Of a DNA stretch of 64,000 nt, positions 4,029 through 62,006 are shown piece by piece. Positions within the stretch are counted from its first letter, which is position 1. Each line of letters begins with the position of its first letter. The stretch comes from an uncultured virus (IMG/VR IMGVR_UViG_3300038960_000189). Lineage: Duplodnaviria > Heunggongvirae > Uroviricota > Caudoviricetes. The position numbers were made by a program, and so were the translations under genes. Below the pieces are notes generated by a model. That model did not search any database. It was not told where the DNA came from and worked only from the letters and a program-made list of their open reading frames with translations. The stretch is taken from the IMG/VR virus record IMGVR_UViG_3300038960_000189. One strand, given 5' to 3'.

Positions 4029-5663
4029 TTACAAAGTATTTAATCCATGAACATATACTTTACCATAGAATTCAGGTCTTACCATTTTCTTAGCATATCT
4101 TGTCATTACACCTTTTCTTGGAGTAAAGTTTACAGGATCATATACTAATGGAGTCATGATAAGTGGCACGTATGGAGCATAAACTGCACCTGTTTCAAGG
4201 AACTGCGCTCCTCTATATCCCATAAGGATTACGTTTTCTTTCATGTATGGGTTTTTGTATACTGTGTATCTGTTATTGATTGCACCAATTTTTTGAACAC
4301 CAGCGGCAAATTCCATTTTGTTACCATCTGTGTCAGCAGCAAATCCAGGAATAGATTCAAGGACTGTTGCTACAGCAGGACTAGTTACTAAGAAATTAGC
4401 ACCACCTCTGAGTGTTTTCTGATGAATTTTATTAGATACTTTTTGAAGTTTAGTTCCTAAAGTTTGGAACCACTCTCCTTGAGTGTTATAATATCCACCG
4501 CCACCAGCAGTTTTTTGTTCAAAATTGTCTACACCATTCCAGATATAGTTACTTACAGCTGACCAGAATTCTGTTGTTACAGCTCCGTTGATCAACATGT
4601 CTAAAATTTCAAGATCAATTTCCATTGATACATATTCACTTAACATTGAAGTTAATTCAGCTTCAGCGTCAATTGAGTGATATGCATTTAAATCTTGAGC
4701 AAATTCAGGTGTCCATACAGCCTTTAATTTTCTTGTCTTAGCGACAATCGGTTCGGACTGCATTTCTAAATTTACTTCTGGGATATCAATATCAGTACCT
4801 TCATCGATACCAGTTCCAGCACCACTTCCTTTGAAAGGATCTTGATCTTCAAAATCACCTCTTGTAAAGTCTACTGGTTGCTTACTATATGATACTTGAT
4901 AATCACCATCTTCGATAGTTCCGCCTGATCCAGAAACAACAAATACTACATTTGATCCTTCTACTCTTGTAAAAGCATTATATTGTGTAATAGTTGCACC
5001 TGATCCAGATTCTAAAATAAATGATCTTACTGCAGTAGAATCTGATCCTGATAACGATGCTAATGGGATAGATACTTCATCTAATGTATAAGCAATTGAT
5101 GCTAAGTCTGAATCATAATTTACAGACGCAGAAGTAGCTGCAGCTGTAGTTGCTGAAGCAGTTACTACTACTTCGTTAATTGAATATCCAAATCTACCAG
5201 CCCCGTATAAACCTCCAGAAGCATCAGCTTCATCAGAAGTTACACCGAACATTGAGTTGTTTGCATTTGGTGAACCAAACGGGAATTCTCCCGAGTCACC
5301 ACCTGTTGTTTCGAATCCAGGCTGAGCTGTACCATATTTAAAATCTAAATAAAATACAAGTCCAGATGGCAAATTCATTGGTTGTACAGAAACAAATTCT
5401 TTTGCTGCAAATTCAGCAAAGATTCTTCTAACCAATGGAAGTGCAACACCTGCCCACTCTTCAGCACCTTCAGTGGTACCAGTAGCAGATGCTTCTTTTA
5501 CTAGTTGTCTAGCCTGGTTCTCAAGTAGCTGGGACATACCAGCTTTTTCAGTATCTCCTTTTAATCCTTCAAGAAGACCTGTCTTTTCCCATTTTTGAAC
5601 TAACCCTACGGCAGCTTTTCTTTGGGAAGGATTATTGTTTTCCAATAATGATGAGATTTCCAT
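4029..5663 (-). CDS. gp23: major capsid protein (T4 gp23 family)
   Basis: LPLVRRIF, VSVQPMNLPSGLVFYL, AKTRKLKAVWTPEFAQDLNAYHSIDAEAEL, YAPYVPL, FTPRKGVMTRY motifs. Confidence 0.97.
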   Translation of the reverse strand: MEISSLLENNNPSQRKAAVGLVQKWEKTGLLEGLKGDTEKAGMSQLLENQARQLVKEASATGTTEGAEEWAGVALPLVRRIFAEFAAKEFVSVQPMNLPSGLVFYLDFKYGTAQPGFETTGGDSGEFPFGSPNANNSMFGVTSDEADASGGLYGAGRFGYSINEVVVTASATTAAATSASVNYDSDLASIAYTLDEVSIPLASLSGSDSTAVRSFILESGSGATITQYNAFTRVEGSNVVFVVSGSGGTIEDGDYQVSYSKQPVDFTRGDFEDQDPFKGSGAGTGIDEGTDIDIPEVNLEMQSEPIVAKTRKLKAVWTPEFAQDLNAYHSIDAEAELTSMLSEYVSMEIDLEILDMLINGAVTTEFWSAVSNYIWNGVDNFEQKTAGGGGYYNTQGEWFQTLGTKLQKVSNKIHQKTLRGGANFLVTSPAVATVLESIPGFAADTDGNKMEFAAGVQKIGAINNRYTVYKNPYMKENVILMGYRGAQFLETGAVYAPYVPLIMTPLVYDPVNFTPRKGVMTRYAKKMVRPEFYGKVYVHGLNTL

Positions 5664-5679: not shown

Positions 5680-6747
5680 TTAATCTAACAAACCAGCTAA
5701 TTTTTTCCATCTATTAGCTAATTGGTTTCCTTCGTTTATAATTTTCTTTGTTGGAGCGGTTGTAGTACCAGTTGGTCTAGAGGCTGCGCCTTCTTTAACC
5801 ATTTTCTTTTTCTTGGTAGGAACTGTGAAGTTCTCTGCCAATGTAGTGAATACAAGTTTCACTTCTCTTGTAGTACCAGCTCTATCAAAATTTTCAATTA
5901 CTTTCATTTTTTGATCTTCGCTCAATTCAAAATTTCTAAACAATTTGTTTGTGAAAAGAAGTTTTGCATTTAAAAGATTAACTTCATTGATGGTTTCACG
6001 TAAAGATTCAATGGTGTCATAAGCTTCAGTTAATTCTTCTTCTATATTCTCCATTTTTTTCTTTTTATCACCTCTACCTTCTGTTGGCATTTCTTTAGAA
6101 TGTTCGTCACTAGAATCTGCATCTGCATCATTCATTGGCATTCCTCTGCCCTCAGTTGGCATACCATCTTCGTCTTCTGCTAAGATAGACTCGATAATTT
6201 CATCGATAAATTCTTCTGAAGTTAAGTCTTTTTCGGCTTCTGCTTCTTCAGCATCTTCTCCGCCTCCATGAGCTTTTTCAGTTAATTCATCTTCGAATAA
6301 TTCATCTTCAGTTAATTCTTCCTCATTTAAATCTTCTTCAAGTTCTCTAATAATAGCTTCTAGTTCTAAATCTTCTGTTACATCTTCTTCTGTCATATTG
6401 ACGTCGAGAGTATCTTCTTCTACTGGTGCTGGCATTTCCATTTCTGGTTCCATTTCTTCAGCTACATCAGCTACATCAGCTACAGGTTCAGCCGGCATTT
6501 CTATTTCCGGTTCTATGTCTAGTTCCATTGATGGAGTTTTTTCTGTTTCTGTATCTGCCATAATGGCTTCAGCGTCTGCTATACTTTCTTCTTCGTCTAA
6601 TTCTTCAGATAATTTAGTTGATAACATTGATTGTATCCTAGGAGCAAATGCTTCTTCTAAAGCAATCTTTGCATTCGCTAGTGCAGTTTCTTTAACAGCC
6701 TTAGCATCAGCAATTGCTTCTTTAAGCAAATCTGACTTTGCGTCCAT
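5680..6747 (-). CDS. gp22: prohead core/scaffold protein (gp22-like)
   Basis: Very acidic coiled-coil protein directly upstream of MCP; many L/I-x-E sites; AAGGAG SD. Confidence 0.8.
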   Translation of the reverse strand: MDAKSDLLKEAIADAKAVKETALANAKIALEEAFAPRIQSMLSTKLSEELDEEESIADAEAIMADTETEKTPSMELDIEPEIEMPAEPVADVADVAEEMEPEMEMPAPVEEDTLDVNMTEEDVTEDLELEAIIRELEEDLNEEELTEDELFEDELTEKAHGGGEDAEEAEAEKDLTSEEFIDEIIESILAEDEDGMPTEGRGMPMNDADADSSDEHSKEMPTEGRGDKKKKMENIEEELTEAYDTIESLRETINEVNLLNAKLLFTNKLFRNFELSEDQKMKVIENFDRAGTTREVKLVFTTLAENFTVPTKKKKMVKEGAASRPTGTTTAPTKKIINEGNQLANRWKKLAGLLD

Positions 6748-7678: not shown

Positions 7679-8044
7679 TTAATTTATTTCAAAATACTTG
7701 CTTAATCCTTGTCCTATATCTTCATATGCAGCTGAAAGTCTTTCTTGTAATCTAGACATTTCTTGTGCTGTTTTTTCGAAAATTTTATATGATTCGTTTA
7801 GTCCTTTCATATGTCGATTAACAGTAATACCATCAAACCAATCGCCTTCTGCTAATGTGACTTGTTGAGCCATTTCTACCATATGTTTTATTTTTTCACA
7901 AAGCTCTTGCAAATCTGTTCTACTATAAACTGATTCGCCTAGGCTCGAGTAATTTTTTACAGACTCTACAAATTCACGCTTTTGTTCAGTAGTTATTTGT
8001 ATTGGCTCGCTTTCTAATGCCTCTAATAATTCTCGTATTTTCAT
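7679..8044 (-). CDS. conserved head-module hypothetical protein
   Basis: Likely start at ATG 8044 (MKIRELLE), just after the protease stop; coiled-coil. Confidence 0.6.
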   Translation of the reverse strand: MKIRELLEALESEPIQITTEQKREFVESVKNYSSLGESVYSRTDLQELCEKIKHMVEMAQQVTLAEGDWFDGITVNRHMKGLNESYKIFEKTAQEMSRLQERLSAAYEDIGQGLSKYFEIN

Positions 8045-8045
8045 T

Positions 8046-8675
8046 TTAAATCCTGCATTTCCCGTTATCACAAAGTATTGAAGTTATTATATTATTTACT
8101 TTGTCGTATTTGTTATTTTCTATTGTGTTATTAACTGATTCATTCATTCTTGTAGGACGAAGGAATGCTCCATGAGTTGATGGATTTGATACAAAATCAA
8201 AACAAATTAACTCAAAATCTTCTTGAACTTCAACAGCAGACTCTTTATATAATTCCTTAACTGACCCTAATCCTCTACTAGATATACCTAATGTAATACC
8301 AGCATCAAATAATGATTTTAATATTTTTCCTGCAGGAGTTTCAAGTATTTGTACGGCTCCTTTTAAATCATTACCATCCCACCACATTTTTAATACATTA
8401 TGAGAAACATTATTTAAATTTACAACAGATGAATCTGGATGATCTAATTCTCCTAATGCTCTATTTTGACTAACATATTCTTTTTGATATTTTTGTGCTT
8501 CACGTTGTAGAATAGATTTTGGATATACACGTCCATTTTGATTTTTAGCTCCAGCTCGTTGCAAAACTCCTTGAACAATTAATCCTCCAGGAATACCATA
8601 TTCTGCAGCTGCTTGTTCTGTAACTGTGCCTAATGGTTTAAATGGCATATATTCTACTAGTAATGATTTACTCAT
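8046..8675 (-). CDS. gp21: prohead core protease (T4 gp21 family)
   Basis: NQNGRVYP, ALGELDHP, VSH, TPAGKIL, GISSRGLGS, DFVSNPS motifs. Confidence 0.95.
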   Translation of the reverse strand: MSKSLLVEYMPFKPLGTVTEQAAAEYGIPGGLIVQGVLQRAGAKNQNGRVYPKSILQREAQKYQKEYVSQNRALGELDHPDSSVVNLNNVSHNVLKMWWDGNDLKGAVQILETPAGKILKSLFDAGITLGISSRGLGSVKELYKESAVEVQEDFELICFDFVSNPSTHGAFLRPTRMNESVNNTIENNKYDKVNNIITSILCDNGKCRI

Positions 8676-8676: not shown

Positions 8677-9501
8677 TTATTCTCCTAAACTTCTTATTCT
8701 TTCAGAAATTTTTAATAATCTTTCAGAAATTTTACCTAAAGCGTTTTTTGTTGATTTACCATAAGTTGAACCAGCTATTCCAGATTCATTTTTTAATCTA
8801 GAAGTATATCTAACTAATTTTTCTATTTCTTGTAACTTTTTTGCTACTTCTTTTATAGTTCCATTAACAGTTTGTGTTGGTGTTGCTTTTGCATTACCAG
8901 TTGCAAATCTTGAATATGATTCAATCATTTGTACGTATTTTTGATCCATTGCTTCTGATACTGATGCATAAGTATATTTTTTTTCTGGTGCGTCTGGATC
9001 TTTAAATGCATTTGGGGTCGGGTATGATGCTACTCCTGAACTTTGACTAATTTCATCAATATCTTCATTAAATATATAATCAGACAACGCCATTCTAATA
9101 GTACCTCTTAACATACCATCATCTTTAATACTTGGAAATCGTTTCGCAATAGCTTTAGCAACTGCATCTACTCTTTTATCTTGTAAATCTGAAATATTAT
9201 CTTCTGTTACAACTTCTTCATCTACGTCTTCTTGTTTTGTATTACAATGTGCTTCATCTATATCATCTTCTTTAACTACTAATTTCACATCTTTACCTTT
9301 AGCATCTAAATCCATAGCTATTTTTTCGTCGTCAGTTGTTATCATTTCATTAGACTTTTGTTTTGCCATTGCAGCTTTAATAGCTTGATCTTTTGCCATT
9401 AAATAATCAGCAGAATCTACATCTCCATCACCATCACGATCTAATTCCTTTTCTTGCAATTCTTGAAATTTTGATTCTATTTCTTTTAAAAATGATCTCA
9501 T
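8677..9501 (-). CDS. hypothetical prohead-associated protein with EF-hand-like loop
   Basis: Acidic ORF between portal and protease; DRDGDGDVDSAD loop. Confidence 0.6.
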   Translation of the reverse strand: MRSFLKEIESKFQELQEKELDRDGDGDVDSADYLMAKDQAIKAAMAKQKSNEMITTDDEKIAMDLDAKGKDVKLVVKEDDIDEAHCNTKQEDVDEEVVTEDNISDLQDKRVDAVAKAIAKRFPSIKDDGMLRGTIRMALSDYIFNEDIDEISQSSGVASYPTPNAFKDPDAPEKKYTYASVSEAMDQKYVQMIESYSRFATGNAKATPTQTVNGTIKEVAKKLQEIEKLVRYTSRLKNESGIAGSTYGKSTKNALGKISERLLKISERIRSLGE

Positions 9502-12162: not shown

Positions 12163-12196
12163 AATTGTATCTTTAATTTATTATAAATATAACTAA

Positions 12197-24000: not shown

Positions 24001-24170
24001 GTTACTACACATATACTAGAATCAGTTGCATGTTGTGCAATATATAAAAATAAATTATCAAATACTTGATTGTATTCTTTATGTCTTTTCAGTGTTCGTA
24101 TATGAACATCAGAAATATGAAATATTTTATCAATTGACTTGATATTTGTTTTTAATGTTTTTATTTCCAT
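21060..24170 (-). CDS. fused SbcD/Mre11 (gp47) nuclease and SbcC/Rad50 (gp46) ATPase
   Basis: DVH, GDIVH, GNHD, GDIH phosphoesterase motifs; NASGKSS Walker A; coiled coil with CKYC zinc hook; TSGME signature; IAIDEG Walker B; ISH. Confidence 0.92.
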   Translation of the reverse strand: MEIKTLKTNIKSIDKIFHISDVHIRTLKRHKEYNQVFDNLFLYIAQHATDSSICVVTGDIVHSKLDMSPELVNMLTKFFNAFQIPTIVILGNHDMNLNNLYRLDALSPILNVLNNKNIHFIKENGLFKFANVVFNHMAVDVAPKDYIQAKDFEGHYKIALHHGAVHNAKTDIGFEISNEHVTTDLFKGHDLTLLGDIHKPAQFLNQEKTIGYPGSLIQQNHGEALDHGILVWDLPDRKAEFIEIHNDYGYVTFEVDNAKIVSSPHRVPNKPRVRIKFNDTDASDIKKLIATIRSKYRVQDISIQRSANHIENTTNGSITIGNVRDIEYQNNLITQYIEDNYPEADKKELDAIRHINRSINSKLPVLSSVRNVTWYPISFEFDNMFSYGENNKVDFSKLSDVIGLFAANASGKSSLLDAITYTIFDKCSKTSKSKEVLNNKKSTFKGVFKFMLNDKLYTIEREGITLKHGHVKVNVNFYNEDENLNGEERSDTNKSIRRYLGTYDDFILTAFSLQADNNNFIEKSQRERKDLLSQFLDTTVFEQLYHLASEEIKETSGKLKEYKKTDFGSIIKESDDIIMENQDTIIELEESDNAFQESRNKLQNEIVELIESKQPMSYEGPDIKELEETQEYLEEDIEELQTNIEDLENTIEILNNQCKVASEYDFQSDINVLNIKKDNINKSIRESTAMILGYQSDLTYLQEKIDHLKDHEYDPDCKYCISNVFVKEAKEAEKEIPIKEKALLKREQIQRSSKLKLNIIQDEIDKIQEKQDIRNKLDKHELQLQVLESDLQTKESELETCFERQELFRKNESAIIHNTSIDKKISVKKRLITDIATTLKSITDQIKSNHGEIEVAKTKKKTALEQLDTYKQLETEYKAYEYYLHSVKRDGVPYELIKKALPKIETEINNVLNQVVDFNMVLNTDGKNINGYIIYDEDNFWPLELTSGMERFISSLAIRVALINVSALPRPNFIAIDEGWGSLDTDHITAVTNLFDYFRTKFDFSIIISHVESMRDMVDNLIEVNKIKNFSHIQHV

Positions 24171-27566: not shown

Positions 27567-28112
27567 CTACCAATCAATCATTACTATGTTTCCGTTCCAT
27601 TGCATAACATTGTCTGGTTTAAAATCTAATGAAAATTCTAAATCACCAATCCCCATTCTTTTAACTTGTTGTTCTAAAGCACGTAAAAAGCTTACAAGTC
27701 TTGGTGCATATTTTCTAGTTGATTCAGTATTTAAATATTCAAATATACTTGTTTCGTGACCTTGATTTCTAGCATATTCTTTGTAATCTTCATAAAATTG
27801 TATTACTTGACGATAATCACCTGGTGATAATTTTTCAGCTTTATTCATTATATACATTCGATTTGATCTATCAGAATAATGCACTGGAATAAATGCATTA
27901 AATTCACCATAACGACCAACAATTACGTCTGCAACTGCTAACTCATCTGGTTCGGTTGTTATTTTAAATAAATAATCTTCGTTGTTAATTTGATAAACTT
28001 TTCCATTATCTCCTCGAGCATAAAATTTAATTTCTTTGTTTTTAATTTTGTCTAACAACTTTGAAGCTTCTTGTTGTGTTATTTCTTGTAATATTTCTTT
28101 TAATTTTTTCAT
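27567..28112 (-). CDS. minimal protein kinase-like protein
   Basis: ARGDNGKVY (G-loop), FKIT, LDFKPDNVM (catalytic loop), MIDW. Confidence 0.7.
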   Translation of the reverse strand: MKKLKEILQEITQQEASKLLDKIKNKEIKFYARGDNGKVYQINNEDYLFKITTEPDELAVADVIVGRYGEFNAFIPVHYSDRSNRMYIMNKAEKLSPGDYRQVIQFYEDYKEYARNQGHETSIFEYLNTESTRKYAPRLVSFLRALEQQVKRMGIGDLEFSLDFKPDNVMQWNGNIVMIDW

Positions 28113-50311: not shown

Positions 50312-50722
50312 TTAAAAACCAAATATTTGAACTGAATATCCCTTATAAAAACCATATCCAGCTTCTTTGTGCCAATCGAATAACATTTGTTTGTTATGGC
50401 CTGGCGAATAACAAAAACCCTTAAATTCGGCATATACTCCGTCATATAAAGTAAAATATCTAGTTAAATCAGCTCCAGATCCTATATTTTCATTCCAAAC
50501 ACTATCAATATGATTAAATTCGCCGGTTTTATACATATATTCTGCTCTTGATTGAGCTAATTCCGTTAAACTATCAGATAAAGTTAATATTGACTCTCCG
50601 TTAGCAACTCTATGCGAATTAACTAATTTATGCATTATATTAACACAAGAATCTATAGTTGATTGTTTGCTTTGAGAATATACCGATAATGGTAATAATA
50701 ATATTAGAAGTAATTTTTTCAT
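50312..50722 (-). CDS. secreted CAP/SCP-domain protein
   Basis: Signal peptide ending VYS|Q; VNSHR..G..L..L.ELAQSRAEYM..F.H, ENI, SPGH..M. Confidence 0.75.
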   Translation of the reverse strand: MKKLLLILLLPLSVYSQSKQSTIDSCVNIMHKLVNSHRVANGESILTLSDSLTELAQSRAEYMYKTGEFNHIDSVWNENIGSGADLTRYFTLYDGVYAEFKGFCYSPGHNKQMLFDWHKEAGYGFYKGYSVQIFGF

Positions 50723-50780: not shown

Positions 50781-52877
50781 TTAACTAAACGTTTCAATAG
50801 TTGTTTTACCAGTATATGCTAAAGCATCAGGATTCTTTGTTGCTTTTCCTGTTTCAATTTTTTTATTTAGATTATCAGCAGTTATGTTTACTCCGTTCCA
50901 AACAGAATATTTTTTTCCTATAATTAAAGATCGATTACCATCAGAGTCATATGCTCCAGTAGCAGGAGAATCAAATTTAGGCATTCTTGTTTTAAATAAA
51001 TCTGCTATGTAAAATGCTTTGTCACCTTGTGGCTTAAACAAATAGTAATCTGCTCCAGAAGAAACTTTGAGATCTTTACTTCTCATTTTAAATTTAGCAA
51101 ATCCTGTATATTTACTTGAACCAGTTTTGTCTAAATATCCTTCCGCTCCTCTATATCCAGGTAAGTATTCTTTACTATCTAGATCACCAAATCTTAATTC
51201 TCCAACATAAAGTGCTGATGCATAAATTGTCATCTTCTTAACATCTGCTAACCATGATTTTTCATCTTTATATATAGCCATTGATCCTTTATATGAATCA
51301 GCGTTTAATTTTATAAAAGCATACGCATTAATTAAGCCACTAGCTTTTCCACCTTTTTGAAATCCACTGTAAACAATATTTTTGTCTTGTAATGTTGATT
51401 GATACCATTTTGTAGACATCGTTCCTGGTTTATTTTGTCTCCATCCGGTTGCAATATCACCATCAACAAGAACCATATTAGGCTGATTGCCTACTTTATA
51501 CCATGGATATTGAATAACGTATCTAGGTAGTTCTTCTCTTGGCGTTACCGCAGATGTTACTACTGCATGAGCACTTCTTGTTGTCTTATCCGTAACTTTA
51601 TCAGCTGATATATCTATCTGCATTTTAAACTTAAGAGCATTTTGTATATAAGGAACTATTTTTTGTCGTAAAGCTTCTGCTCTTTCTTTAGCTAAAAAAT
51701 CATTACCTTTTGCAATTGTTTGATATTTATCCGGGCCAGATCCTTTTGCTCTTTTATCATTAGTAGCCTTTCCTGCATCATCTGTTAAATATTTAGTTAC
51801 CCATCCTTTGAATTCTGAATCTCCTCCGAAGTCATGATCAGGGGCAGCTTTATTTACTTTATTATCCCAACGATTAGTTGCAGGTACATCTGTTGCTTGA
51901 CCATTAATCTTAACTGCTAAATCTTCGAGTCTTTTTCCTTTTTTTAATTCATTTTGAATTTGCTCAATAACTTTGTTAGCATGTTTTTGCCATGTACCAT
52001 CATTGATAGTTATGTAATTATTATTGAATACATCATCAAATTCAACAGGAGGAAGCTGTTCCGTTTCTTGTTCAAATAAATTCAATCTAGTTGATTGTTT
52101 TAACAGTTCTTTTAATTTAATCATAGTTTCATCCGTTTCTAGGCGTTCTTTTATAATATTTGCCAATCTATTTTGTGATTTATAATAAATAAAGGAACGA
52201 TACACTTGTTTTGGCGTTAAACCAAAGTTATGAGATAGATTGTCAAGAATATCTGCAACTAAATGCTCCTTTTCCATGTCATTTTTCACTTTTTCGCCTA
52301 GAATTTGTATAATACGCTCTAAATACGTGACATATCCTCCTGGTAATCTCTTTAATGCTCTTGATTTACCGGTATGAACCTTACTTTTTTTCTTTTTTTT
52401 GGACTTTTTTGCTTCTAAAACCAATTTTTTTGCTAAATCTTGGGATGTTTCCACTGATTCAGTAGGTGTAGCCGGCATATTTGCCGCATCTTCACCCTCT
52501 TCACCGCCTGTATTTTGTTTTTTATCATCTGCTGGTGGTGTTATTCCCTCTAAATCTTGTAAAGGTATATTCAATTTAATAGTATAATCTTCATTTCTTG
52601 AATATCCACCATATGGAACAAGAGAAATTATGTTATCTCGAGTCAAACTTTGGAAAACTTGCATGTTCAAGTTTAGTTCTGGTCCGCTTCTTCCTAGAAA
52701 TTCACGAATTCCCATTTCATTTGGTGCATAAATAATACCTAATGAATCTGTACCTAATTCTATAAACTTAGATAAAAACTTTTCTTCATCTTCAGAGAAT
52801 GCAGATGTTTCTATTTCTTGCTCATTTATAGATTTAAGCAACTCTTCTCGTATAATATGTCGAATCATCTTTTCCAT
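50781..52877 (-). CDS. multidomain protein with internal MIKLK leader and OmpA-like domain
   Basis: Internal MIKLKELL at ATG 52124; VKINGQATD...NDFLAKERAEALR resembles OmpA/MotB C-domain. Confidence 0.55.
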   Translation of the reverse strand: MEKMIRHIIREELLKSINEQEIETSAFSEDEEKFLSKFIELGTDSLGIIYAPNEMGIREFLGRSGPELNLNMQVFQSLTRDNIISLVPYGGYSRNEDYTIKLNIPLQDLEGITPPADDKKQNTGGEEGEDAANMPATPTESVETSQDLAKKLVLEAKKSKKKKKSKVHTGKSRALKRLPGGYVTYLERIIQILGEKVKNDMEKEHLVADILDNLSHNFGLTPKQVYRSFIYYKSQNRLANIIKERLETDETMIKLKELLKQSTRLNLFEQETEQLPPVEFDDVFNNNYITINDGTWQKHANKVIEQIQNELKKGKRLEDLAVKINGQATDVPATNRWDNKVNKAAPDHDFGGDSEFKGWVTKYLTDDAGKATNDKRAKGSGPDKYQTIAKGNDFLAKERAEALRQKIVPYIQNALKFKMQIDISADKVTDKTTRSAHAVVTSAVTPREELPRYVIQYPWYKVGNQPNMVLVDGDIATGWRQNKPGTMSTKWYQSTLQDKNIVYSGFQKGGKASGLINAYAFIKLNADSYKGSMAIYKDEKSWLADVKKMTIYASALYVGELRFGDLDSKEYLPGYRGAEGYLDKTGSSKYTGFAKFKMRSKDLKVSSGADYYLFKPQGDKAFYIADLFKTRMPKFDSPATGAYDSDGNRSLIIGKKYSVWNGVNITADNLNKKIETGKATKNPDALAYTGKTTIETFS

Positions 52878-53077
52878 TATATTTTTTTCGATTCAGCTAA
52901 GCAAGCCGTTCTATATTTTGAAGCTAGTTTTCGTATTTCATTGATAGATTTTCTAGCTCTAACTCCGGCAGCTTTTACTTGCCTTGTTTGAAATCTTTCG
53001 TGATTCTCTTGAAACAATGCCCAATAATTTTTCATTTCTTCATATATTTCTTGAGCAGACTTTTGTTCTTCAGACAT
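52877..53077 (-). CDS. histone H1-like (Hc1-type) protein
   Basis: KAAGVRARKSINEIRKLASKYR resembles the Hc1-type histone-like family; late motif at 53101-53108. Confidence 0.7.
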   Translation of the reverse strand: MSEEQKSAQEIYEEMKNYWALFQENHERFQTRQVKAAGVRARKSINEIRKLASKYRTACLAESKKI

Positions 53078-53111
53078 ACGTAAATCCTTTTTATTTTAAT
53101 ATAAATATCGT

Positions 53112-53300
53112 TTAATTGTAATACATGAAAATACGTTCAGCTAATGCATCAATATTAGATTCATTAGTATGAATAGTTGTGTCGTCAATTAATTGTACAC
53201 ATACTTCTTGAGTGATATCATCATTATATAATTGAACAATATATTCAATGTTTATGTAATGCTTACCTTCGTATTTATCGTGTATTTGTATTAGTCCCAT
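53112..53300 (-). CDS. small hypothetical protein (FlbD-like pattern)
   Basis: HYINIEYIVQL...VQLIDDTTIHTNES. Confidence 0.45.
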   Translation of the reverse strand: MGLIQIHDKYEGKHYINIEYIVQLYNDDITQEVCVQLIDDTTIHTNESNIDALAERIFMYYN

Positions 53301-53328
53301 ATTGTACTATTAATTTAATATTTGCAAA

Positions 53329-53607
53329 TTATTTTTTTAATTTGTGTATAGGATATTCTGTAACAGATTGATCATTTGGAAAAATTAATTCAGGGCCTCC
53401 TGGAATGCCTATTTGTTGTTGTCCAGATTGATCTCCTATTATTAATAACATGTATTTTTGTGGCACACCTGTTCTTGGATCAGGTCCCATTGTAATACGG
53501 TTGCTTGTTATTCTTGTTATTCTACCAGGGTATTCCCATTGGCCAAGATTTGACTCAATAATTTCTTGATTTGGAATACTTTTCAATATGTCTTGTAACT
53601 TTATCAT
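53329..53607 (-). CDS. MIKLK-leader protein
   Basis: MIKLQDILKS...IIE then GQWEYPG..ITSNRITM..VTEYP domain. Confidence 0.6.
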   Translation of the reverse strand: MIKLQDILKSIPNQEIIESNLGQWEYPGRITRITSNRITMGPDPRTGVPQKYMLLIIGDQSGQQQIGIPGGPELIFPNDQSVTEYPIHKLKK

Positions 53608-53608
53608 T

Positions 53609-54616
53609 TTATTTAAATGGAACTCCCTTTCTCCAATTTTGTATTACAGATTTATTTAAAGGAATGACTTCAGGTTTACCTAACATTCCTTTTCCTATTA
53701 TAAAATCAAATCCATCATTCATATATTTAGTTAAATTTCCTACAGACATTCCATCAATTATTTCGCCAGTATTTTGTAAATCTAAGCCTCTCGATCCAGC
53801 TTTTAATTCAAAATTATAATATGGCTTTTTACCTGTTGGTTTATAAAATGACGATCCAGATTGTGGATTTGTAGTATAAAATCCACCTGGTTTATTTAAT
53901 GCATCTGTGCCTACTCTTCTTTTAAAAGATCCAGGTCGACTTAAATTTTTAATATTATCTAAAAATCCAGTTAAGTTTAATTTGTTAATTGTTAAATTAG
54001 GATCTGGAGAAACATGTTGTAAAGGCATAGCTTTGTTAGTTTTTATAACCTTCATTTTATTGTTATAGCCTTTAAAATTTTTATAAAATGATGTAGCATC
54101 AATTTTACCAGCAATCAAATCTTCTAGATATTTATCTAAATTTAAATGAGGAAATTTTTTCATCATTGATTCTATTGCTAACATTTGTCTTCGTATATTA
54201 TTCTTAAATTTAACTATTACTTCTAGAATCTTTTTTATTTGACGTAAAGAATATTTAACTCCTCGTTTCAAAGCAAATCCTACAGCTTGTTTTACTCCAG
54301 GTATTGCTCCTATTAAAGGAAGCGCTGCAAATACGCCAGATATAGTTCCCATTAATTTATCGTCTTCTTTAAAATATAATGCAGCATTTGCTAATTCTAT
54401 TGCAACAGCAGCAGGTGGAAAAATAAATGCAGATCCAAACGCTGCAATATCTAATAATGTATGTCTATGATCATAGATCCAATCTGTTGTAGCTTTAATA
54501 GCTTTAGTTACTGGTTTTTCATATGACCGAACTGCTTGGTATGATGGATACATACTAGCACCACTTGTTGGCATACTAAATTGTTCATCTAATAATATGT
54601 CTTTTAGTTTTATCAT
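53609..54616 (-). CDS. MIKLK-leader protein: pre-toxin TG-like linker plus putative ADP-ribosyltransferase
   Basis: LDIAAF...ELANAALYFKEDD...AALPLIG; LQHVS...GGFYTT...LDL...GFDFII...EVI. Confidence 0.6.
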   Translation of the reverse strand: MIKLKDILLDEQFSMPTSGASMYPSYQAVRSYEKPVTKAIKATTDWIYDHRHTLLDIAAFGSAFIFPPAAVAIELANAALYFKEDDKLMGTISGVFAALPLIGAIPGVKQAVGFALKRGVKYSLRQIKKILEVIVKFKNNIRRQMLAIESMMKKFPHLNLDKYLEDLIAGKIDATSFYKNFKGYNNKMKVIKTNKAMPLQHVSPDPNLTINKLNLTGFLDNIKNLSRPGSFKRRVGTDALNKPGGFYTTNPQSGSSFYKPTGKKPYYNFELKAGSRGLDLQNTGEIIDGMSVGNLTKYMNDGFDFIIGKGMLGKPEVIPLNKSVIQNWRKGVPFK

Positions 54617-55462
54617 TTAAATATTGCTTGTCTTGTCCCTTGTATAGGATTTTCTTTTGATGCAGAACATCCTAATGATTTTAGATAATCTGTAACTAAT
54701 TGAATTGTTAATTCTTCTAATATTGTTGATATTGATTCTTGATCTTTTTTTGCTTCTTCAGTACGATTAGGATAATTTAGTTTTTCATGAAAATCTTTAA
54801 TTATGCTAATTGCCTTTCCCGCAGATGGTTTGCTGTCGGGATCAAATAAGTACCTATGATTTCCATGTATAAAAGAATGATATATATCTGAATCACCTTC
54901 TGGTTTGTTTGTACATGTAAGATATTTTCCTAATCGCTGAGATAAATTAGTTATGTCTTGAGTTTTACTTACTAATCCAGNNNNNNNNNNTCGGCGCTGT
55001 TACAGTACAATTAGTTATTTTAGCTATTTCAGCAACTACCGTAGGATTATCTGCTACACTACATCCTCCTAAAAATATTTTTGTATTTGAGTTACAATAT
55101 TTAGCTAGTTCACTCCAAAATGGACTTGCTCCTAATGCAATATCATAGTTAAATTTACCGCATCCGGTATTATGTGATGATATAGTTATGCTATTTAATT
55201 TACCAGGAACTAATAAATCTGCGTTTGCTAATTCTTTTATTTTATTAATAACATCGCCTGTACTCATTTTCTTTGTTACTTCTATATCGATAGCTTTTGT
55301 TCCTTTTAATATTTTACTAGCTATTTTTTCTCCAGCTGTTGAAAAATTTTGTAAAATATAATCCATATTGAATTTAGGTCTTGCTTGGCCAATAAACAAA
55401 TCTGTAATTATCTGTTTACTTTCAGATTGTTGTTCTAATAATATGTCTTTTAATTTAATCAT
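54613..55462 (-). CDS. MIKLK-leader protein with DUF4347/caspase-like (His-Cys) domain, across N gap
   Basis: ITISSHN.G and IFLGGCSVA; after the 54981-54990 gap a frame (GLVSKTQ...QAIFK) stays open to TGA at 54613, overlapping the next ATG. Confidence 0.55.
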
Positions 55463-55830
55463 TTTTTCGATCTTGAATATGATTTTCTTCTTCGTTTCCT
55501 AGAAGCTTTAGTATCTTTTTTCTTTCCGCCTTCACCCCAATTTGCTGCTCCTACCTTTCTGCATGCAGATAATGCTAATGATCCATATGCAGATGGCCAA
55601 ACTTTGTAACGTCTTTTAACTTTGTAATAACATTTATCTCGTCTAGCTTTTTTCTTTTTCTTTTTTTCTGCTAATTCAATTTCATCAACTTTGTCAGGTA
55701 AATTTTCATAATCTTTTTTAGTCATTTTACTTGCAAGTTTTTTAGCCGCATCTTTATCAGTAGCAAACATATATCTTTGTTGTGCCTTTGATGCAAATTT
55801 TTCTGGTAATAATTCTTTTAGCTTAATCAT
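55459..55830 (-). CDS. MIKLK-leader basic protein
   Basis: MIKLKELLPE; CYYKVKRRYKVWPSAYGS..CRK. Confidence 0.65.
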   Translation of the reverse strand: MIKLKELLPEKFASKAQQRYMFATDKDAAKKLASKMTKKDYENLPDKVDEIELAEKKKKKKARRDKCYYKVKRRYKVWPSAYGSLALSACRKVGAANWGEGGKKKDTKASRKRRRKSYSRSKK

Positions 55831-56468
55831 GACTTCTTTTTCTTTTTCCGATAAGTAGATACATTTTTAGCTTTACCTCTTCTATCTGGATTTGGATCTT
55901 CTCTTCGCTTTCTTCTAGCTGCAGACGCTCTTTTCTTTTTACCCATTGCTCTTGCTTGAGCTAATGGTAAACATTTAGGTTTGCCTTCTCCTTTTTTTCT
56001 TCCTCCACAAGAACCTCTAATTTTACCGTCAGGTCCCATTCTAACCCATTTTTGTTTTAACCATTTTCTTAAATCTTCTTGAACTGCTGCTTTTTGAGGT
56101 CCTCTAATATGATCTAAATATGGCTCTATGTCTCCATTGGTATATTTAATTTGATAATCTTCAACATCTGTAGACCCTTTTGGAATAATAATTTTTTCTA
56201 CTGTTTTACCACCAATTTTTAAAATTTCTTCAAGCTCTTTGTATCCAGATCCATATGGTGCTGCTTTGCCGTCATGATTAGGAGCAATGCTTTCATCTTG
56301 ATACATTATCATTTGCTCTGGATCTGAAAATCCTTCGTCTGGAAGTTTGGCTTCTCGTTTAACACAATTTGGAACACGTTTTCCAAACATTGTTTTCATT
56401 CCTTTTTTCTCGTATCCTTTCCAACAACGAGTACCTTTTTCCAGTAGTATGTCTTTGAGCTTTATCAT
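55827..56468 (-). CDS. MIKLK-leader basic multi-module protein
   Basis: MIKLKDILLE; CWKGY..VPNCVK; EDLRKW..KWV..CG..KPKCLP; late motif at 56474-56481. Confidence 0.65.
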   Translation of the reverse strand: MIKLKDILLEKGTRCWKGYEKKGMKTMFGKRVPNCVKREAKLPDEGFSDPEQMIMYQDESIAPNHDGKAAPYGSGYKELEEILKIGGKTVEKIIIPKGSTDVEDYQIKYTNGDIEPYLDHIRGPQKAAVQEDLRKWLKQKWVRMGPDGKIRGSCGGRKKGEGKPKCLPLAQARAMGKKKRASAARRKRREDPNPDRRGKAKNVSTYRKKKKKS

Positions 56469-56528
56469 TTTATATAAATATTGTTATCATGAAATAACAT
56501 TATATATAATATATTGATTGAATATGTG

Positions 56529-57047
56529 TTATGATGTTTTGAATCCTGCGGGAGTAATTTGCGGAAATTCTTGTAGAATAAATCCACGTATAAATTCTAA
56601 TTGTTGAAGTAGTTGTCCTAATATAGCAACTGCATTTTCAATCATACCAGATTTCATACTCATATCTATTTGATTGTCATACCATAGTAATTGTTCAAAT
56701 TCTATAGAATCTCCTGGATCCATATCTGAATTAACATAACTAAATAATTTTTCAGCTACTTCATCGTCACTTACTTGCCTTGTGTGTAATTCATCTTGTA
56801 TGTCAATTGCTACTGTTTCCATTTCATTTAGTATATCAGATGCTTTTTGTTTAAGATCTTCAGATGCATCTGAACTAGCAATTTGTTGTGCATAACTTGA
56901 TATAGCAGTTTTTGCATTACCTGCTTCAAAATTGTTAAAAAATTTAGAAAACTCTTGACGTGTTTGTCGTGCAATATTTTTTTGTTTAGGGACTCCTGGA
57001 ATTTGAAATCCTATTTGATCTTGTAATAATTCTTTTAATTTAATCAT
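56529..57047 (-). CDS. MIKLK-leader helical protein
   Basis: MIKLKELLQD. Confidence 0.6.
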   Translation of the reverse strand: MIKLKELLQDQIGFQIPGVPKQKNIARQTRQEFSKFFNNFEAGNAKTAISSYAQQIASSDASEDLKQKASDILNEMETVAIDIQDELHTRQVSDDEVAEKLFSYVNSDMDPGDSIEFEQLLWYDNQIDMSMKSGMIENAVAILGQLLQQLEFIRGFILQEFPQITPAGFKTS

Positions 57048-57058
57048 ATTAACCTTTA

Positions 57059-57391
57059 TTATTCTCCTTCAACTTGTCCAAGTTCTGGATGATATCCTAA
57101 CCAAACATATTTTGGATATCCAAATGATTCTCCATGCTCTCTAAAATCATCTGAAGGAGTATTTGCAGCTCTTAATTCTGCAGACACTATATTATCTGGT
57201 GTGCCGTACCAATATGCAACATCATATCCACCATCATCTTTCCATCTAACAACTAATCCTCTAGTATGATCATCAGTATCAGCTTGTAATACTGTTGTTT
57301 TACCTTTTGGTAATTTTAAATCAACATTTAACTCTTCTTCTGTTTTATCAGAGTCTTCTTGTTCGTTTAATATATTTTTAAGTTTAATCAT
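57059..57391 (-). CDS. MIKLK-leader acidic protein
   Basis: MIKLKNILNE. Confidence 0.6.
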   Translation of the reverse strand: MIKLKNILNEQEDSDKTEEELNVDLKLPKGKTTVLQADTDDHTRGLVVRWKDDGGYDVAYWYGTPDNIVSAELRAANTPSDDFREHGESFGYPKYVWLGYHPELGQVEGE

Positions 57392-57406
57392 TTGTATTTA
57401 AAACAC

Positions 57407-57450
57407 TAAAACTGCCGAATTAGATAAATTTATTTATTTCGGCAGCTTTA
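57407..57450 (-). terminator. hairpin, probable terminator
   Basis: CTGCCGAA...TTCGGCAG arms with AT-rich inner stem; TTTT follows on minus strand. Confidence 0.55.
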
Positions 57451-57487
57451 TTTCAAACTCCTCTTTTTTGTATAACACGCATAACTA

Positions 57488-57808
57488 TTAGGTATCATCA
57501 GTTTTCGATCTTCTTTTTCTTGTAGATCTATTCGTTGCTGATATTAATAACCTTTCTTCCATACGTGCTAATTTTTCTCTTAACATCGTATTTTCTTCAA
57601 TTAATGCATCAATCTTGCCTTCTAATTCTTCTATCTTTCTTTTCAAATCTAGAATAACTTCAGACATCAATTTGTCTTTGATATTTTGATCTTTAGTTAA
57701 TTTTTTTTCTCGAAGCTCAATTCTTCGCTTCCATATCAACCAAATTTCTTTAATACCTAATGCACTAACTAATGCAGTTAAAATACTGACTAGTAGTTCG
57801 CTTTCCAT
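57488..57808 (-). CDS. TM-anchored coiled-coil protein (holin/antiholin-like)
   Basis: N-terminal hydrophobic helix then leucine-zipper coil; late motif at 57853-57860. Confidence 0.5.
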   Translation of the reverse strand: MESELLVSILTALVSALGIKEIWLIWKRRIELREKKLTKDQNIKDKLMSEVILDLKRKIEELEGKIDALIEENTMLREKLARMEERLLISATNRSTRKRRSKTDDT

Positions 57809-57890
57809 GTTTATACCTTCCTCATGTTAAACGATTACATCATTCACCATTTATAAATATGTAACAGTATATAAAAGTAACTATAATTAG

Positions 57891-58418
57891 CTAATCTTTT
57901 TCTTTTTTATCGATCCCAAAATTTTCTTTTAACCATTTAGTATATTTTGGCTTTAAAGACTCTTCCATTGTCGCCCATTGATATGCTAATGAATATCTAA
58001 CATTTTCAATTTTCTTATCAATAGAATTACATAAGTCTTCGAAGGTATCTATTAATTCATCAGTTATATATTCTGCTATATCAATATTATTTTCTTCAGC
58101 TACTAAAATTAATCCAATAGTATCTCCCTCATTATATAATCTAGATAGTTCGTGAAATTTATCTGCAGAGCCTCCTTTATCTGGATGTAGATGTTTACTT
58201 AATTCAGTATATATACGTCTAGCTGGAGAACTTGTTACACGATTGTTTATTTTTTCTTGTAACTTTGTTTCGTCAGATTTTTTATCTTTTGTTGTATCTT
58301 TTTCTATTGACTCAAAATCATTTACGAATTGTTTGATATATACATCGTTTTCTTTTTTTATATCATTTAATTCACAAATTAAATATTGGTACTTATGTAT
58401 CCATTTTTGGTAAGACAT
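57891..58418 (-). CDS. J-domain (DnaJ-like) protein
   Basis: YTELSKHLHPDKGGS..F..L..Y (HPD motif). Confidence 0.75.
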   Translation of the reverse strand: MSYQKWIHKYQYLICELNDIKKENDVYIKQFVNDFESIEKDTTKDKKSDETKLQEKINNRVTSSPARRIYTELSKHLHPDKGGSADKFHELSRLYNEGDTIGLILVAEENNIDIAEYITDELIDTFEDLCNSIDKKIENVRYSLAYQWATMEESLKPKYTKWLKENFGIDKKEKD

Positions 58419-59365
58419 ATATTATCTATTTCATTATTACAATAGTTACATATAAGATCCATTGATTCATTTAATACGTAATTATCTAACTTTGGTATGT
58501 AATAATTTAGTGCATCTTTTAAGTCATCAAATATTTGTATGTAATATTTAATATCTTTTTTATTTAAATATCGCTTACCGCCCCATAGATGAAATAAACT
58601 TGAGTCTAATTCATTAATAGCATTTTCAACGCTATTATTATATAATTGCGATTTAAAATTGCTAGAAAATGCAATAATATTTAAAATAGAATGACTAGTA
58701 TATTTTGGGTTTAATTCTAATAATACAGAAAGCCACCATTGCTCAATAACAATTTGAGCTCCAGATTCTATAAAATCTCTTGATAAATATTTTTTTGGTA
58801 TGTTATATATTCCTTTATTATCAGTAACAAATTCAAAGTAACGATCAATATATTTTTTTAATAAATTTAAATTGTTCCACACAGTAAATGCACAATTGAT
58901 AGGAACAGTTGATGAAAATGCATCAAGTTCTTTTTTGGACCATTTAAAATTATCTGGAGTTGATAAGTGATACGGCTTTGGATATATATATGGACTTTCT
59001 GTATGTAAAAATGCTATATCATAATTAAAAAAATTATCAATTGTTTTATGCCATACCAAGTCAGTATCTAACATACAAAATCTATCAGTTTGATGTTTCA
59101 TAACCCAAAGTTTTGGAGTAGCCCAAAATGTTTTATAATTGATTTGTTCTTTAGGTAATGTATCTAAAACATCGGTGTCAACAAAATCATATATTTGATC
59201 TAACTTAAAGTATTTGTATTGTTGTAATGTATCTGTGTCAGTATATAGATAAAATGGAATATTAGGATTCATTAATTTCCACTTAATAACACTCAATAAC
59301 TGTGTTAGTAATTCTAATCCTATAAATTTCTTATTATATTGTTTATATGAATGTATTGCTTTCAA
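58379..59365 (-). CDS. DUF6734-like / GT-A nucleotide-sugar transferase-like protein
   Basis: LYTD, FWATPKL, F.MLDTDL (DxD), IEQ, HLWG; promoter TTGAAA-N16-TATATT at 59375-59402. Confidence 0.6.
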   Translation of the reverse strand: MKAIHSYKQYNKKFIGLELLTQLLSVIKWKLMNPNIPFYLYTDTDTLQQYKYFKLDQIYDFVDTDVLDTLPKEQINYKTFWATPKLWVMKHQTDRFCMLDTDLVWHKTIDNFFNYDIAFLHTESPYIYPKPYHLSTPDNFKWSKKELDAFSSTVPINCAFTVWNNLNLLKKYIDRYFEFVTDNKGIYNIPKKYLSRDFIESGAQIVIEQWWLSVLLELNPKYTSHSILNIIAFSSNFKSQLYNNSVENAINELDSSLFHLWGGKRYLNKKDIKYYIQIFDDLKDALNYYIPKLDNYVLNESMDLICNYCNNEIDNICLTKNGYISTNI

Positions 59366-59415
59366 TTATATAATAATATAAGAAAAAATATGATACTTTC
59401 AAAAGATAATAGATT

Positions 59416-59931
59416 TTAAGATGTAGTTCCCCACCTTTGTAACATTGAAGATTTTGCACTCATTGCTTGTTGTTTGTCTTTCATGAATCTGTCATCATCA
59501 ATTAAAACTTTTTCCCAATGTTCTTTAGCATCTGGATTTAATATAATTTTTACATTTCCAAATCTTCGTTTTGTTTCTTCTTTCCAATCTTCTAATGATT
59601 TCATATCTCCTATAACAGATGATGCGTCTGATGGATTTGGAAAATTTAATCCATCTCTATAAAATGGTCCTTCTTTACCATCCGGTTGCATTCTATCAAA
59701 ATGTTTATCATTAAAATGATCTTTTGATTTAAATGCTTTTACTAGATCGTCAAATTTCAATTGATCTAAATTAAATTCTTGTACATTTAAATTGCCAGTC
59801 ATTGGATTTCTATATAATCCTTGCATTATATCTGTTTCAGATGCATCTGGCAATTGTTGTTCTTTAACACGTCCAGCTCCTATACCAAAGCCTAGATATT
59901 TTTCTGATAGTAAAGATTTTAATTTAATCAT
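59416..59931 (-). CDS. MIKLK-leader protein
   Basis: MIKLKSLLSE. Confidence 0.6.
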   Translation of the reverse strand: MIKLKSLLSEKYLGFGIGAGRVKEQQLPDASETDIMQGLYRNPMTGNLNVQEFNLDQLKFDDLVKAFKSKDHFNDKHFDRMQPDGKEGPFYRDGLNFPNPSDASSVIGDMKSLEDWKEETKRRFGNVKIILNPDAKEHWEKVLIDDDRFMKDKQQAMSAKSSMLQRWGTTS

Positions 59932-61619: not shown

Positions 61620-62006
61620 TTATACTTTGGTTAATTTTAGAGTTTTAAGTACTTTTTGAATCACTGTAGGCATTTTTGACTTCATAGGAGACAAATCGAT
61701 TTCACGTTCTCCTTTGGTTAACTTTGATTCCATATCCTTTATGAAGTTCATATCATCAATAACAGAGGTAGATGGCTCGCCGTCGTTGTCATATGTTAAC
61801 GTGACACTACCATCTGCATTTTGTTTTAATCCTAATATATCAACTGGGCCATCTCCAAGTCCGAATGGAAGCGATGTATCTGCTACTAATTTATATCTAT
61901 TAGGCCCGGCTACTATTTCACCTCCAATTGCCTTGATAGGAGCAGGTTCATTTTGTTCTAGAAGATTCTTGGTTCTAAATCTTCGCATATTTTCTCGTAG
62001 GCTCAT
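61620..62006 (-). CDS. hypothetical protein with ...KNLLEQ leader
   Basis: MSLRENMRRFRTKNLLEQ; AAGGA SD; late motif at 62038-62045. Confidence 0.6.
   Translation of the reverse strand: MSLRENMRRFRTKNLLEQNEPAPIKAIGGEIVAGPNRYKLVADTSLPFGLGDGPVDILGLKQNADGSVTLTYDNDGEPSTSVIDDMNFIKDMESKLTKGEREIDLSPMKSKMPTVIQKVLKTLKLTKV

Follow-up and report, generated by a model that had tools for sequence, protein, structure and literature searches.

Why should a series of neighboring phage genes, most of whose products are otherwise unrelated, begin with the same ten residues? The question is raised by the 64,000-nucleotide (nt) stretch of DNA analyzed here (the window), which comes from an uncultured virus of the class Caudoviricetes (IMG/VR record IMGVR_UViG_3300038960_000189) and carries, between positions 50781 and 59931, an array of genes that share an N-terminal peptide of the type MIKLK(D/E)(I/L)LxE, hereafter the leader. 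The original prediction described this peptide as a modular address tag that loads swappable effectors into the phage head. The address tag is well supported by the comparisons presented below, whereas the array proves to be not simply polymorphic. The leader is probably the version used in this lineage of the T4-type capsid targeting sequence (CTS), with a gp21-type cleavage site, and would serve to load about ten proteins into the prohead core.

The window belongs to a distant T4-like myophage that encodes a gp23-type capsid protein, a gp21-type (S77) head protease and, as found in profile searches, the portal, baseplate parts, and replication genes. All its genes are carried on the minus strand, to which all gene coordinates given here refer. 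The nearest cultured phages, judged by the major capsid protein (MCP), are Flavobacterium phage vB_FspM_immuto (55.2%), Microcystis phage Mel-JY01 (54.5%), and Rhodothermus phage RM378 (39.9%). For comparison, five IMG/VR loci with the same flanking genes and a leader-gene array were used. These relatives are uncultured phages of marine type, kin of the Flavobacterium and Microcystis phages; together with the window they make six genomes, of which five span the whole array.

A six-frame search of the 64 kb for MIKLxx(L/I)L returned nine matches, all of them on the minus strand, between 52124 and 59931, which are the nine near-identical leaders listed in the original prediction. Eight of these stand at gene starts (59931, 57391, 57047, 56468, 55830, 55462, 54616, and 53607), 0 to 15 codons past an in-frame stop, and open 8 of the 79 minus-strand open reading frames (ORFs). 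The ninth, at 52124, is internal and lies 256 codons into an ORF of 698 residues. The level expected by chance is a mean of 0.05 matches, with a maximum of 1, in 200 shuffles of 3-mer blocks, or 0.02 matches per strand from the amino acid composition. All nine leaders have Leu in position 4, Ile or Leu in position 7, and Leu in position 8. Position 10 is Glu in five of the nine, one more (54616) has Glu in position 11, and the rest have Asp, Ser, or Gln in position 10. The leader at 55830, MIKLKELLPE, has Pro-Glu in positions 9 and 10 after two Leu residues and fits the (L/I)xE pattern; in the one at 53607, MIKLQDILKS...IIE, the first (L/I)xE ends at residue 18 (IIE, residues 16 to 18). The three predicted variants, MKKLKEILQE, MKIRELLE, and MEISSLLE, are present at 28112, 8044, and 5663, respectively.

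A common start of this kind could be a feature of the nucleic acid, such as an AT-rich unstructured initiation region or a recombination handle for exchange of cassettes, with no function of the peptide as such. The codons are indeed AT-rich, and the leader forms the 5' junction of a slot in which relatives exchange bodies. However, the residues stay fixed while their codons vary synonymously (ATT and ATA for Ile 2, AAA and AAG for Lys 3, TTA, CTT, CTC, and CTA for Leu 4, and TTA, CTA, TTG, and CTG for Leu 8), and the 70 nt located 5' of the leader starts show no mutual likeness. Thus, the conserved object is a peptide and not a DNA repeat, as had been proposed from the codon variation.

The leader is common, since a degenerate DNA pattern for MIKLK(D/E)(I/L/F/M)L, covering residues 1 to 8 only, matched at least 128 viral stretches in IMG/VR. 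In such collection scans, the pattern itself dictates or limits the residues in positions 4 and 7 and leaves position 10 free. Among the matches listed, to which all counts in this paragraph refer, the strict pattern yields 125 unique viral leader ORFs, 103 of them within 15 codons of an upstream stop. Glu 10 is found in 101 of these 125 ORFs (81%) versus 5 of the 70 ORFs that the same pattern gives in prokaryote genome contigs (7%; Fisher p 3e-25), whereas Phe 7 is found in 1 of the 125 viral ORFs and in 21 of the 70 prokaryotic ones. A relaxed peptide pattern, applied to the same loci, gives 133 unique ORFs of at least 40 residues, with 111 of them starting no more than 15 codons from a stop, 20 at 16 to 50 codons, and 2 further in; in the 131 that start within 50 codons, Glu 10 is present 114 times. 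Position 9 and the positions from 11 on are variable, and the conserved stretch ends sharply at Glu 10. Judged by the difference in the frequency of Glu 10, the motif in its full ten-residue form is specific to viral sequences. This difference, together with the presence of the same leader residues with different codons in distant records, speaks against an origin of the common start in the nucleic acid, which is highly improbable.

A precedent for such a peptide is the CTS of T4. According to a review of T4 head assembly (PMC9026906), the internal protein IPIII needs no more than its first 10 residues to be incorporated; residues 4 and 7 are the main determinants of targeting, and residues 8 and 10 those of processing; Asp in position 10 blocks processing and not targeting; and gp21 cleaves after L/I-X-E. 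That the CTS may be general in T4-like phages has already been suggested in the T4 literature (PMC9026906). IPI, IPII, IPIII, and Alt all lose their CTS to the gp21 prohead protease (Mullaney and Black 1996, as cited in PMC9026906 and PMC3012670). By analogy, the leader, a short amphipathic N-terminal peptide, would bring each protein that bears it into the scaffold core while the prohead is being assembled. Cleavage by the gp21-type S77 protease after the Glu of (L/I)-x-E would then free the mature protein inside the head, and the freed protein would stay with the DNA and leave with it at infection. Reading the leader as an address tag is well supported because it fits the positions that have these roles in T4, ends at Glu, sits on a head-module protein, and mostly accompanies the S77 protease. 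In both AlphaFold models described below, it forms a detached, low-confidence N-terminal helix with a predicted local distance difference test (pLDDT) score of 41 to 58, apart from the well-folded domains. Co-folding of the scaffold, the protease, and the first 45 residues of the 171-residue cargo gave scores of 0.00 and 0.01, where the mark is 0.32, which amounts to no answer and counts neither for nor against the CTS.

The protease is encoded at 8046..8675 and starts with MSKSLLVE. It belongs to the T4 gp21 family (Peptidase_S77, PF03420; E = 2.7e-33, 115.6 bits, cut-off 27), is 36% identical to T4 gp21 over 159 residues, and has T4 gp21 (PDB 5JBL) as its only solved relative; the gp21 homologue named in the original prediction is therefore there. 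Its DHP and ISSRG motifs align with NAP and VASRG in the 5JBL chain and with NHP and VSSRG in the T4 record. To judge from the substitutions in 5JBL, the His and Ser of DHP and ISSRG are the likely catalytic residues. The same head module encodes the MCP of the Gp23 family (4029..5663; PF07068, E = 7.7e-78), in which LLE ends at residues 8, 32, and 48, and an acidic scaffold-like protein (5680..6747), whose N terminus, MDAKSDLLKE, resembles MLKEQLIAE of T4 gp22.

The strongest link of the leader to the head module is the small protein that adjoins the protease (7679..8044), which starts with MKIRELLE. Its orthologues in the same position start with MIRLKDLLKE (genome G003), MANIKLKDLLNE (G004; 46% identity, E = 6e-29), MAKLKKLLEE (G006), and MRIKDLLE (G009), and the N termini of its 120 listed homologues vary on this theme, e.g., MKFKEILEALE, MNIKALMEALE, MKSNLTYILE, and MKLRDLLSE. 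G004 encodes an additional MIKLKDILLE protein between the protease and the scaffold. An (L/I)xE tripeptide within the first 12 residues is found in the scaffold, the protease, the ORF at 8677-9501 (MRSFLKE), the 7679-8044 protein, and the MCP; the N terminus of T4 gp21, for comparison, is MNEPQLLIE. In the window as a whole, 23 of 78 ORFs have such an early (L/I)xE, versus 12.8% expected per protein. The S77 protease is found in 6 of the 9 long leader-bearing viral records searched; among the four records with a completeness of 90% or more, three have it. The searches of leader-bearing records with PF07068 and phrog_207 matched nowhere and are weak negatives.

Eight genes of the array start with the leader. 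In the order of transcription, these encode cargoes of 171 residues (59416..59931; MIKLKSLLSE), 110 residues (57059..57391; MIKLKNILNE), 172 residues (56529..57047; MIKLKELLQD, with Asp 10), 213 residues (55827..56468; MIKLKDILLE, directly behind a ATATTTATA motif), 123 residues (55459..55830; MIKLKELLPE), 165 residues (54965..55462; MIKLKDILLE, with a run of 10 N near its end), 335 residues (53609..54616; MIKLKDILLDE), and 92 residues (53329..53607; MIKLQDILKS...IIE). The predicted chaining by ATGA is real, with 4-nt overlaps at 55830/55827 and 55462/55459. Clustering of the bodies from the window and the five relatives, in which alignments were required to extend past the leader, gave 13 body families with a leader-bearing member in the six genomes. 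Five of them are present in all five genomes that span the array, namely, the families of the 171-residue and 172-residue cargoes, the basic-module family, the family of the 165-residue cargo (258 to 355 residues in the relatives, 165 to 355 overall), and that of the 92-residue cargo (92 to 98 residues). One family, that of the 335-residue cargo, is found in three of the five genomes and the remainder in one or two; the body of the 110-residue cargo is unique to the window among the six genomes. The array therefore consists of a conserved core and of exchangeable slots, and the description of it as polymorphic applies to some slots but not to these five families. Likewise, most bodies are unrelated to each other, as originally stated, but those behind the leaders at 56468 and 55830, both rich in Lys and Arg, fall into one cluster, and five families recur in the relatives. 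The N-terminal half of the 335-residue cargo is conserved and hydrophobic, and its homologues have at least three alternative C-terminal halves.

The conserved core leads to the main competing explanation, in which the leader does target the prohead core and is cut there, but most of the tagged proteins are assembly parts, comparable to T4 gp22, gp67, and gp68, that are degraded and expelled in the course of maturation and do not reach the host. The leader or a close variant of it is indeed found on a conserved head-module protein, with a similar N terminus on the scaffold; five body families occur in 5 of 5 array-spanning genomes, as befits structural parts and not arms-race effectors; and the 172-residue core cargo is acidic and, by eye, helical-looking. 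On the other side, several bodies are of enzyme type (zeta-type kinases, NUDIX, HD, an exonuclease, and a kinase-like fold) and have no evident function in assembly; one slot holds four body families in six genomes; and some modules have homologues in a protein whose annotation assigns it to the virion of a mature cyanophage. Specifically, the 55827-56468 cargo has two modules that match ORF29 of Synechococcus phage S-SCSM1 (20/22 identical residues, E = 2e-11, and 32/86, E = 8e-11), the 55459-55830 cargo has one (28/40, E = 8e-17), and the GenBank product line of ORF29 reads "virion protein." At the DNA level, the only match of the array to cultured phages is a stretch of 70 to 80 bases in cyanophages, inside the CWKGYEKKG module. 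On balance, degradation and expulsion of most tagged proteins is unlikely, although some of them may be parts of the core that are broken down and never delivered.

Pfam searches say little about the bodies in the window, as none of the nine had a match at E <= 0.01, including to the T4 internal-protein family (body homology is not part of the CTS definition). For the leader ORFs of other contigs, the Pfam scan took 91 of the 133, the 42 left out being almost all from short loci. No Pfam family was found at E <= 0.001 in 72 of the 91; the other 19 include Zeta_toxin/AAA_33 (4 ORFs), DUF5824 (2), PAP2 (2), NUDIX, HD, RNase_T, Hydrolase_2, DUF5872, DUF6934, and Phage_L5_gp82. An SMC-like hit, in which the leader match lies 349 codons inside the ORF, is probably a chance match. 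Outside the window, then, different Pfam families do stand behind one leader, which is the association with diverse C-terminal domains that had been anticipated.

One enzyme-like cargo of the window lies outside the array, among the tail genes. This protein of 181 residues (27567..28112) starts with the variant MKKLKEILQE; 57 of 60 of its homologues have a leader-like start, in most cases MIKLKNILNE, and all 26 sequences that were aligned have Glu 10. It has no Pfam family match. Its AlphaFold model (pLDDT 84.9) has 17 PDB matches at E <= 1e-3, all of them to aminoglycoside phosphotransferases or CK2 kinases. Residues K50, D163, N168, and D180, which we take to be the kinase Lys, the Asp and Asn of the catalytic loop, and the metal-binding Asp, respectively, are invariant in the same 26 sequences. 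The protein thus has a fold of the protein-kinase-like superfamily, in line with the original prediction.

The internal leader at 52124, MIKLKELLKQ, belongs to the 698-residue ORF (50781..52877), which combines in one frame a conserved N-domain of 250 residues, the leader, and a 447-residue body. In the relatives, the N-domain is encoded by a separate gene for 237 to 245 residues, whose stop is formed inside leader codons 2 and 3, and the slot that follows it holds the four body families mentioned above, always behind the leader. The junction in the window is 17 nt longer than in the five relatives, and the N-domain and the cargo are fused in frame. A one-base assembly error as the source of the fusion was rejected, given the length of the junction and the presence of a 665-residue fused form among the database representatives. 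The model of the 447-residue body has a pLDDT of 79.8. In Foldseek searches with its first domain (body residues about 20 to 195), the top rows were all OmpA-like (best E = 1.2e-3; template modeling score by target, 0.59 to 0.61). VIA-align gave Z = 8.4 and a root mean square deviation of 2.9 over 104 residues to 9uu2_A, with most top rows OmpA-like, a Z near 8 being borderline. The PF00691 OmpA profile matched none of 35 members of the slot-cargo family at E <= 0.01; the different slot cargo of G009 scored 20.8 bits with the OmpA profile, under the cut-off of 27.2, and a protein-atlas look-up of the slot cargo returned sub-threshold OmpA leads only. The first domain is therefore a probable, not secure, case of an OmpA-like peptidoglycan-binding fold.

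Bodies of this type might suggest that the leader is a tag for a destination other than the capsid, such as the membrane or periplasm, a phage-made compartment, a chaperone, or, as a degron, a host protease. Besides the probable OmpA-like fold, the envelope-type bodies include the Hydrolase_2 cell wall hydrolase, PAP2, and the 335-residue protein with its hydrophobic helices. Sec and lipoprotein signals have a hydrophobic core, whereas the leader has none and consists of a peptide with two Lys residues, one Asp or Glu, and a terminal Glu. A neighboring CAP-domain protein (50312-50722) uses an ordinary signal peptide instead, and further bodies are enzymes of cytoplasmic type. Another destination would also fail to explain why the leader fits the positions of the T4 CTS, why a head-module protein carries it, and why it shares its (L/I)xE ending with the N termini of the capsid protein, the scaffold, and the protease. 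It is quite improbable, and, like an origin in the nucleic acid, it fits poorly with the data as a whole.

The slot cargo also shows how leaders are exchanged. Among the 44 representatives of its family at E <= 0.001, 16 start with MIKLK or MIRLK and one has an internal leader; seven start with a longer peptide ending in ...SH(D/N)VLSE, about six with ...QL(K/D)YI(V/I)(D/K)N...(L/I)(N/D)EQ (e.g., ...DNFDLLNEQ), and one (P0171) with ...ENMRRFKTKNLFEQ. The window itself encodes the last-named type on a 128-residue ORF (61620..62006), which starts with MSLRENMRRFRTKNLLEQ; this second leader class, ...ENMRRF(R/K)TKNL(L/K/D)EQ, has similar starts in three viral loci, including L141:4907-5233 and L066. 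One and the same body is thus found behind different leaders, depending on the phage, and each of these leaders ends with (L/I)xE (e.g., ...SHDVLSE, ...DNFDLLNEQ, and ...RFKTKNLFEQ). Such a picture would be expected if every lineage had its own address, coupled to a protease site common to all. It is conceivable, and here we are rather less confident than about the CTS-like role of the leader in the window, that distant T4-like phages of aquatic bacteria use a small set of interchangeable, lineage-specific capsid addresses (MIKLKDILxE, ...RFKTKNLLEQ, ...SHDVLSE, and ...DNFDLLNEQ, all ending with (L/I)xE), which would make the head a general vehicle for protein delivery. If so, the cargo loaded by such tags would comprise kinase-like enzymes, peptidoglycan-binding proteins, enzymes of nucleotide metabolism, and basic modules that bind DNA. 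Within fused ORFs, the tags could serve as joints between modules, to be separated later by the protease, and the injected proteins of thousands of uncultured phages could be predicted by a simple rule from the sequence. The label "effector" of the original prediction would be in line with the cargo types (kinase-like, OmpA-like, and basic modules) and with the T4 precedent.

The array shares a promoter-like motif with structural genes. This motif, ATATTTATA, is found at 56473..56481 on the minus strand, 13 nt before the start at 56468. In the window, it occurs 18 times on the coding strand and twice on the opposite one, with a gene start 13 to 52 nt behind 16 of the 18 copies. These starts include 12162 and 10370 in the portal region, 3925 in the neck region, and 29677, 27539, and 41627 in the tail/baseplate region (e.g., sites 12182-12190 and 3940-3948, minus strand); in the array, the motif precedes the genes at 56468, 53077, and 57808, and a variant precedes the one at 60932. 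The T4 late-promoter word TATAAATA is not enriched in the window (9 on the coding strand versus 19 on the other), and sigma-70-like sites are at the level of chance (62 found versus 70 expected).

Several observations weigh against the proposed CTS-like function. The leaders with Asp 10 (57047), Ser 10 (53607), and Gln 10 (52124) have no Glu in position 10 or 11; in T4, Asp in position 10 stops processing (PMC9026906). The PAP2-type membrane enzymes among the tagged bodies elsewhere are odd as capsid contents. Phage immuto, the closest cultured relative by MCP, is without the leader. The complete genome G002 (207 kb) has two leaders with Glu 10 and no match to PF03420, phrog_207, or PF07068; T4-like tail-fiber matches are found near its leaders. 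Mass spectrometry of purified S-SCSM1 virions detected 45 proteins, non-structural enzymes included (PMC9602691), and ORF29 was not confirmed among the 45 from the article text or one supplement. Finally, ATATTTATA is also found before genes that are not obviously structural (21036 and 18171), so that it does not prove late expression; the predicted late motif at 56474 is real as a strand-specific, promoter-like motif, but the late timing is not proven by it.

One cultured phage that carries the leader is Microcystis phage Mel-JY01. Three paralogous proteins of this phage (L134:5277-5927, 5924-6106, and 7057-7719) start with MIKLKSLLQE, MIKLKSLLKE, and MIKLMSLVTE, with ISDRVWH(L/V)T as the next residues; its leader genes start at record positions 60276, 60923, and 62056. 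Comparable (Y/W)HFT motifs are located behind the leader in loci L038, L041, and L118; neither these proteins nor the Mel-JY01 paralogues match a Pfam family. In the complete relative G009, seven of the nine pattern matches lie in the array (one being the first leader repeated at the other end of the record), and two lie elsewhere. A contig of a gammaproteobacterial metagenome-assembled genome has two adjacent paralogous ORFs (L215 and L214) that start with MIKLKDLLLE and MIKLKDILFE; this is probably phage DNA that was binned into that genome. The principle of such a leader is already known from T4. No literature was found that describes the leader string, a search with which gave only unrelated vaccine-design papers, or that deals with Mel-JY01; searches for the capsid targeting sequence in T4-like phages and metagenomes turned up no paper on such leaders outside T-even and giant phages, nor was any found on the leader or such arrays in aquatic T4-like phages.

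The array also includes genes without the leader. One of these, located behind a ATATTTATA motif, encodes an Hc1 histone H1-like protein of 66 residues (52877-53077; PF07432, E = 8.1e-12) and is joined by an ATGA overlap to the 698-residue ORF; all relatives have a 61-residue ORF in that position. The leaderless genes at 57891-59365 encode a DUF6734-like protein (PF20508; at 25.1 bits, slightly short of the cut-off of 27) and a 175-residue protein with a weak DnaJ-like stretch (E = 0.006). The 348 nt at 54617-54964 contain no coding-strand ORF of 60 or more residues and no Rfam match, and a run of 10 N (54981-54990) adjoins this segment; further 10-N runs are found at 9748, 13000, 38435, and 39829. 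Rfam and tRNA scans of the whole window gave no match. The gene directly after the array, that of the CAP/cysteine-rich secretory family protein (PF00188, E = 2.2e-7), has a signal-peptide-like start, MKKLLLILLLPLSVYSQ, and the relatives have a similar secreted-looking ORF in its place.

In the head region, a 79-residue ORF (6921-7160) is placed between the scaffold gene and the genes of the head core, with homologues in the same position in G009, G003, G006, and G004; the corresponding ORF of Mel-JY01 is annotated as ribosomal protein S21 (RpsU). The portal gene (10409-12162) is represented by two ORFs in different frames, 12162-11314 and 11308-10409, whereas its orthologue in G009 is a single ORF of 609 residues, 84% identical over the C-terminal part; the split is due to either an assembly error or a real frameshift. 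An ORF of 1,036 residues (21060-24170) matches SbcD-like (phrog_100) and SbcC-like (phrog_77) nuclease subunits and looks like a fusion of two genes of the T4 gp47/gp46 type.

Few of the proteins that marine and freshwater phages carry into their hosts are known, since the majority of these phages have not been cultured. If the leader does mark head-loaded proteins, a rule of ten residues would list candidates for packaged or injected proteins from the sequence. It would also offer an explanation for the non-structural enzymes in purified cyanophage virions (PMC9602691), and a tag this compact might serve for loading foreign proteins into the capsids of T4-like phages other than coliphages.

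How the leader relates to known packaging systems is best seen by comparison with the T4 CTS. Both are N-terminal peptides of 10 residues common to unrelated proteins, with hydrophobic residues in positions 4 and 7, an acidic residue in position 6, Leu or Ile in position 8, and Glu (in the window, mostly Glu) in position 10, and in both cases the head module includes the gene of an S77 protease. According to the T4 record, MKTYQEFIAE is the start of both ipII and ipIII, whereas ipI starts with MKTFKEF and has ITE at residues 17 to 19; positions 4 and 7 are accordingly Tyr or Phe and Phe. The leader at 53607, with its first (L/I)xE at residue 18, is comparable to IPI, where ITE ends at residue 19. 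The peptides themselves differ (MIKLKDILxE versus MKTYQEFIAE), as does the number of tagged proteins, about ten in the window versus four in T4, with a kinase-like and a probable OmpA-like fold in the window set. Further differences are the internal leader of a fused ORF and the lack of enrichment of TATAAATA in the window. The T4 tag has been demonstrated by genetics, whereas that of the window is known from sequence alone.

T-even phages reportedly have hyperplastic internal-protein loci, which are said to have been described by Repoila et al. As in such loci, relatives of the window phage carry different bodies behind the same leader in the same genomic slot. Unlike them, most of the array (five families) is conserved, and the exchange takes place in uncultured marine-type phages and not in coliphages. 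In the giant phages phiKZ, 201phi2-1, and SPN3US, inner-body and ejection proteins are processed by a diverged gp21 homologue after S/A-X-E (excerpts of PMC9026906). In these phages, a gp21-type protease cleaves many head-internal proteins behind the Glu of a short motif, and motifs of this kind also mark the joints between modules. The differences are that those excerpts describe no single common 10-residue N-terminal leader, that Ser or Ala replaces Leu or Ile in the P3 position, and that the protease is far more diverged. In the encapsulin systems, finally, a short peptide tag likewise sends unrelated cargo into a shell of the HK97 fold. The cargo-loading peptides of encapsulins, however, are usually C-terminal, bind directly to the shell protein, and stay uncleaved, and the shell forms with neither a scaffold core nor DNA.

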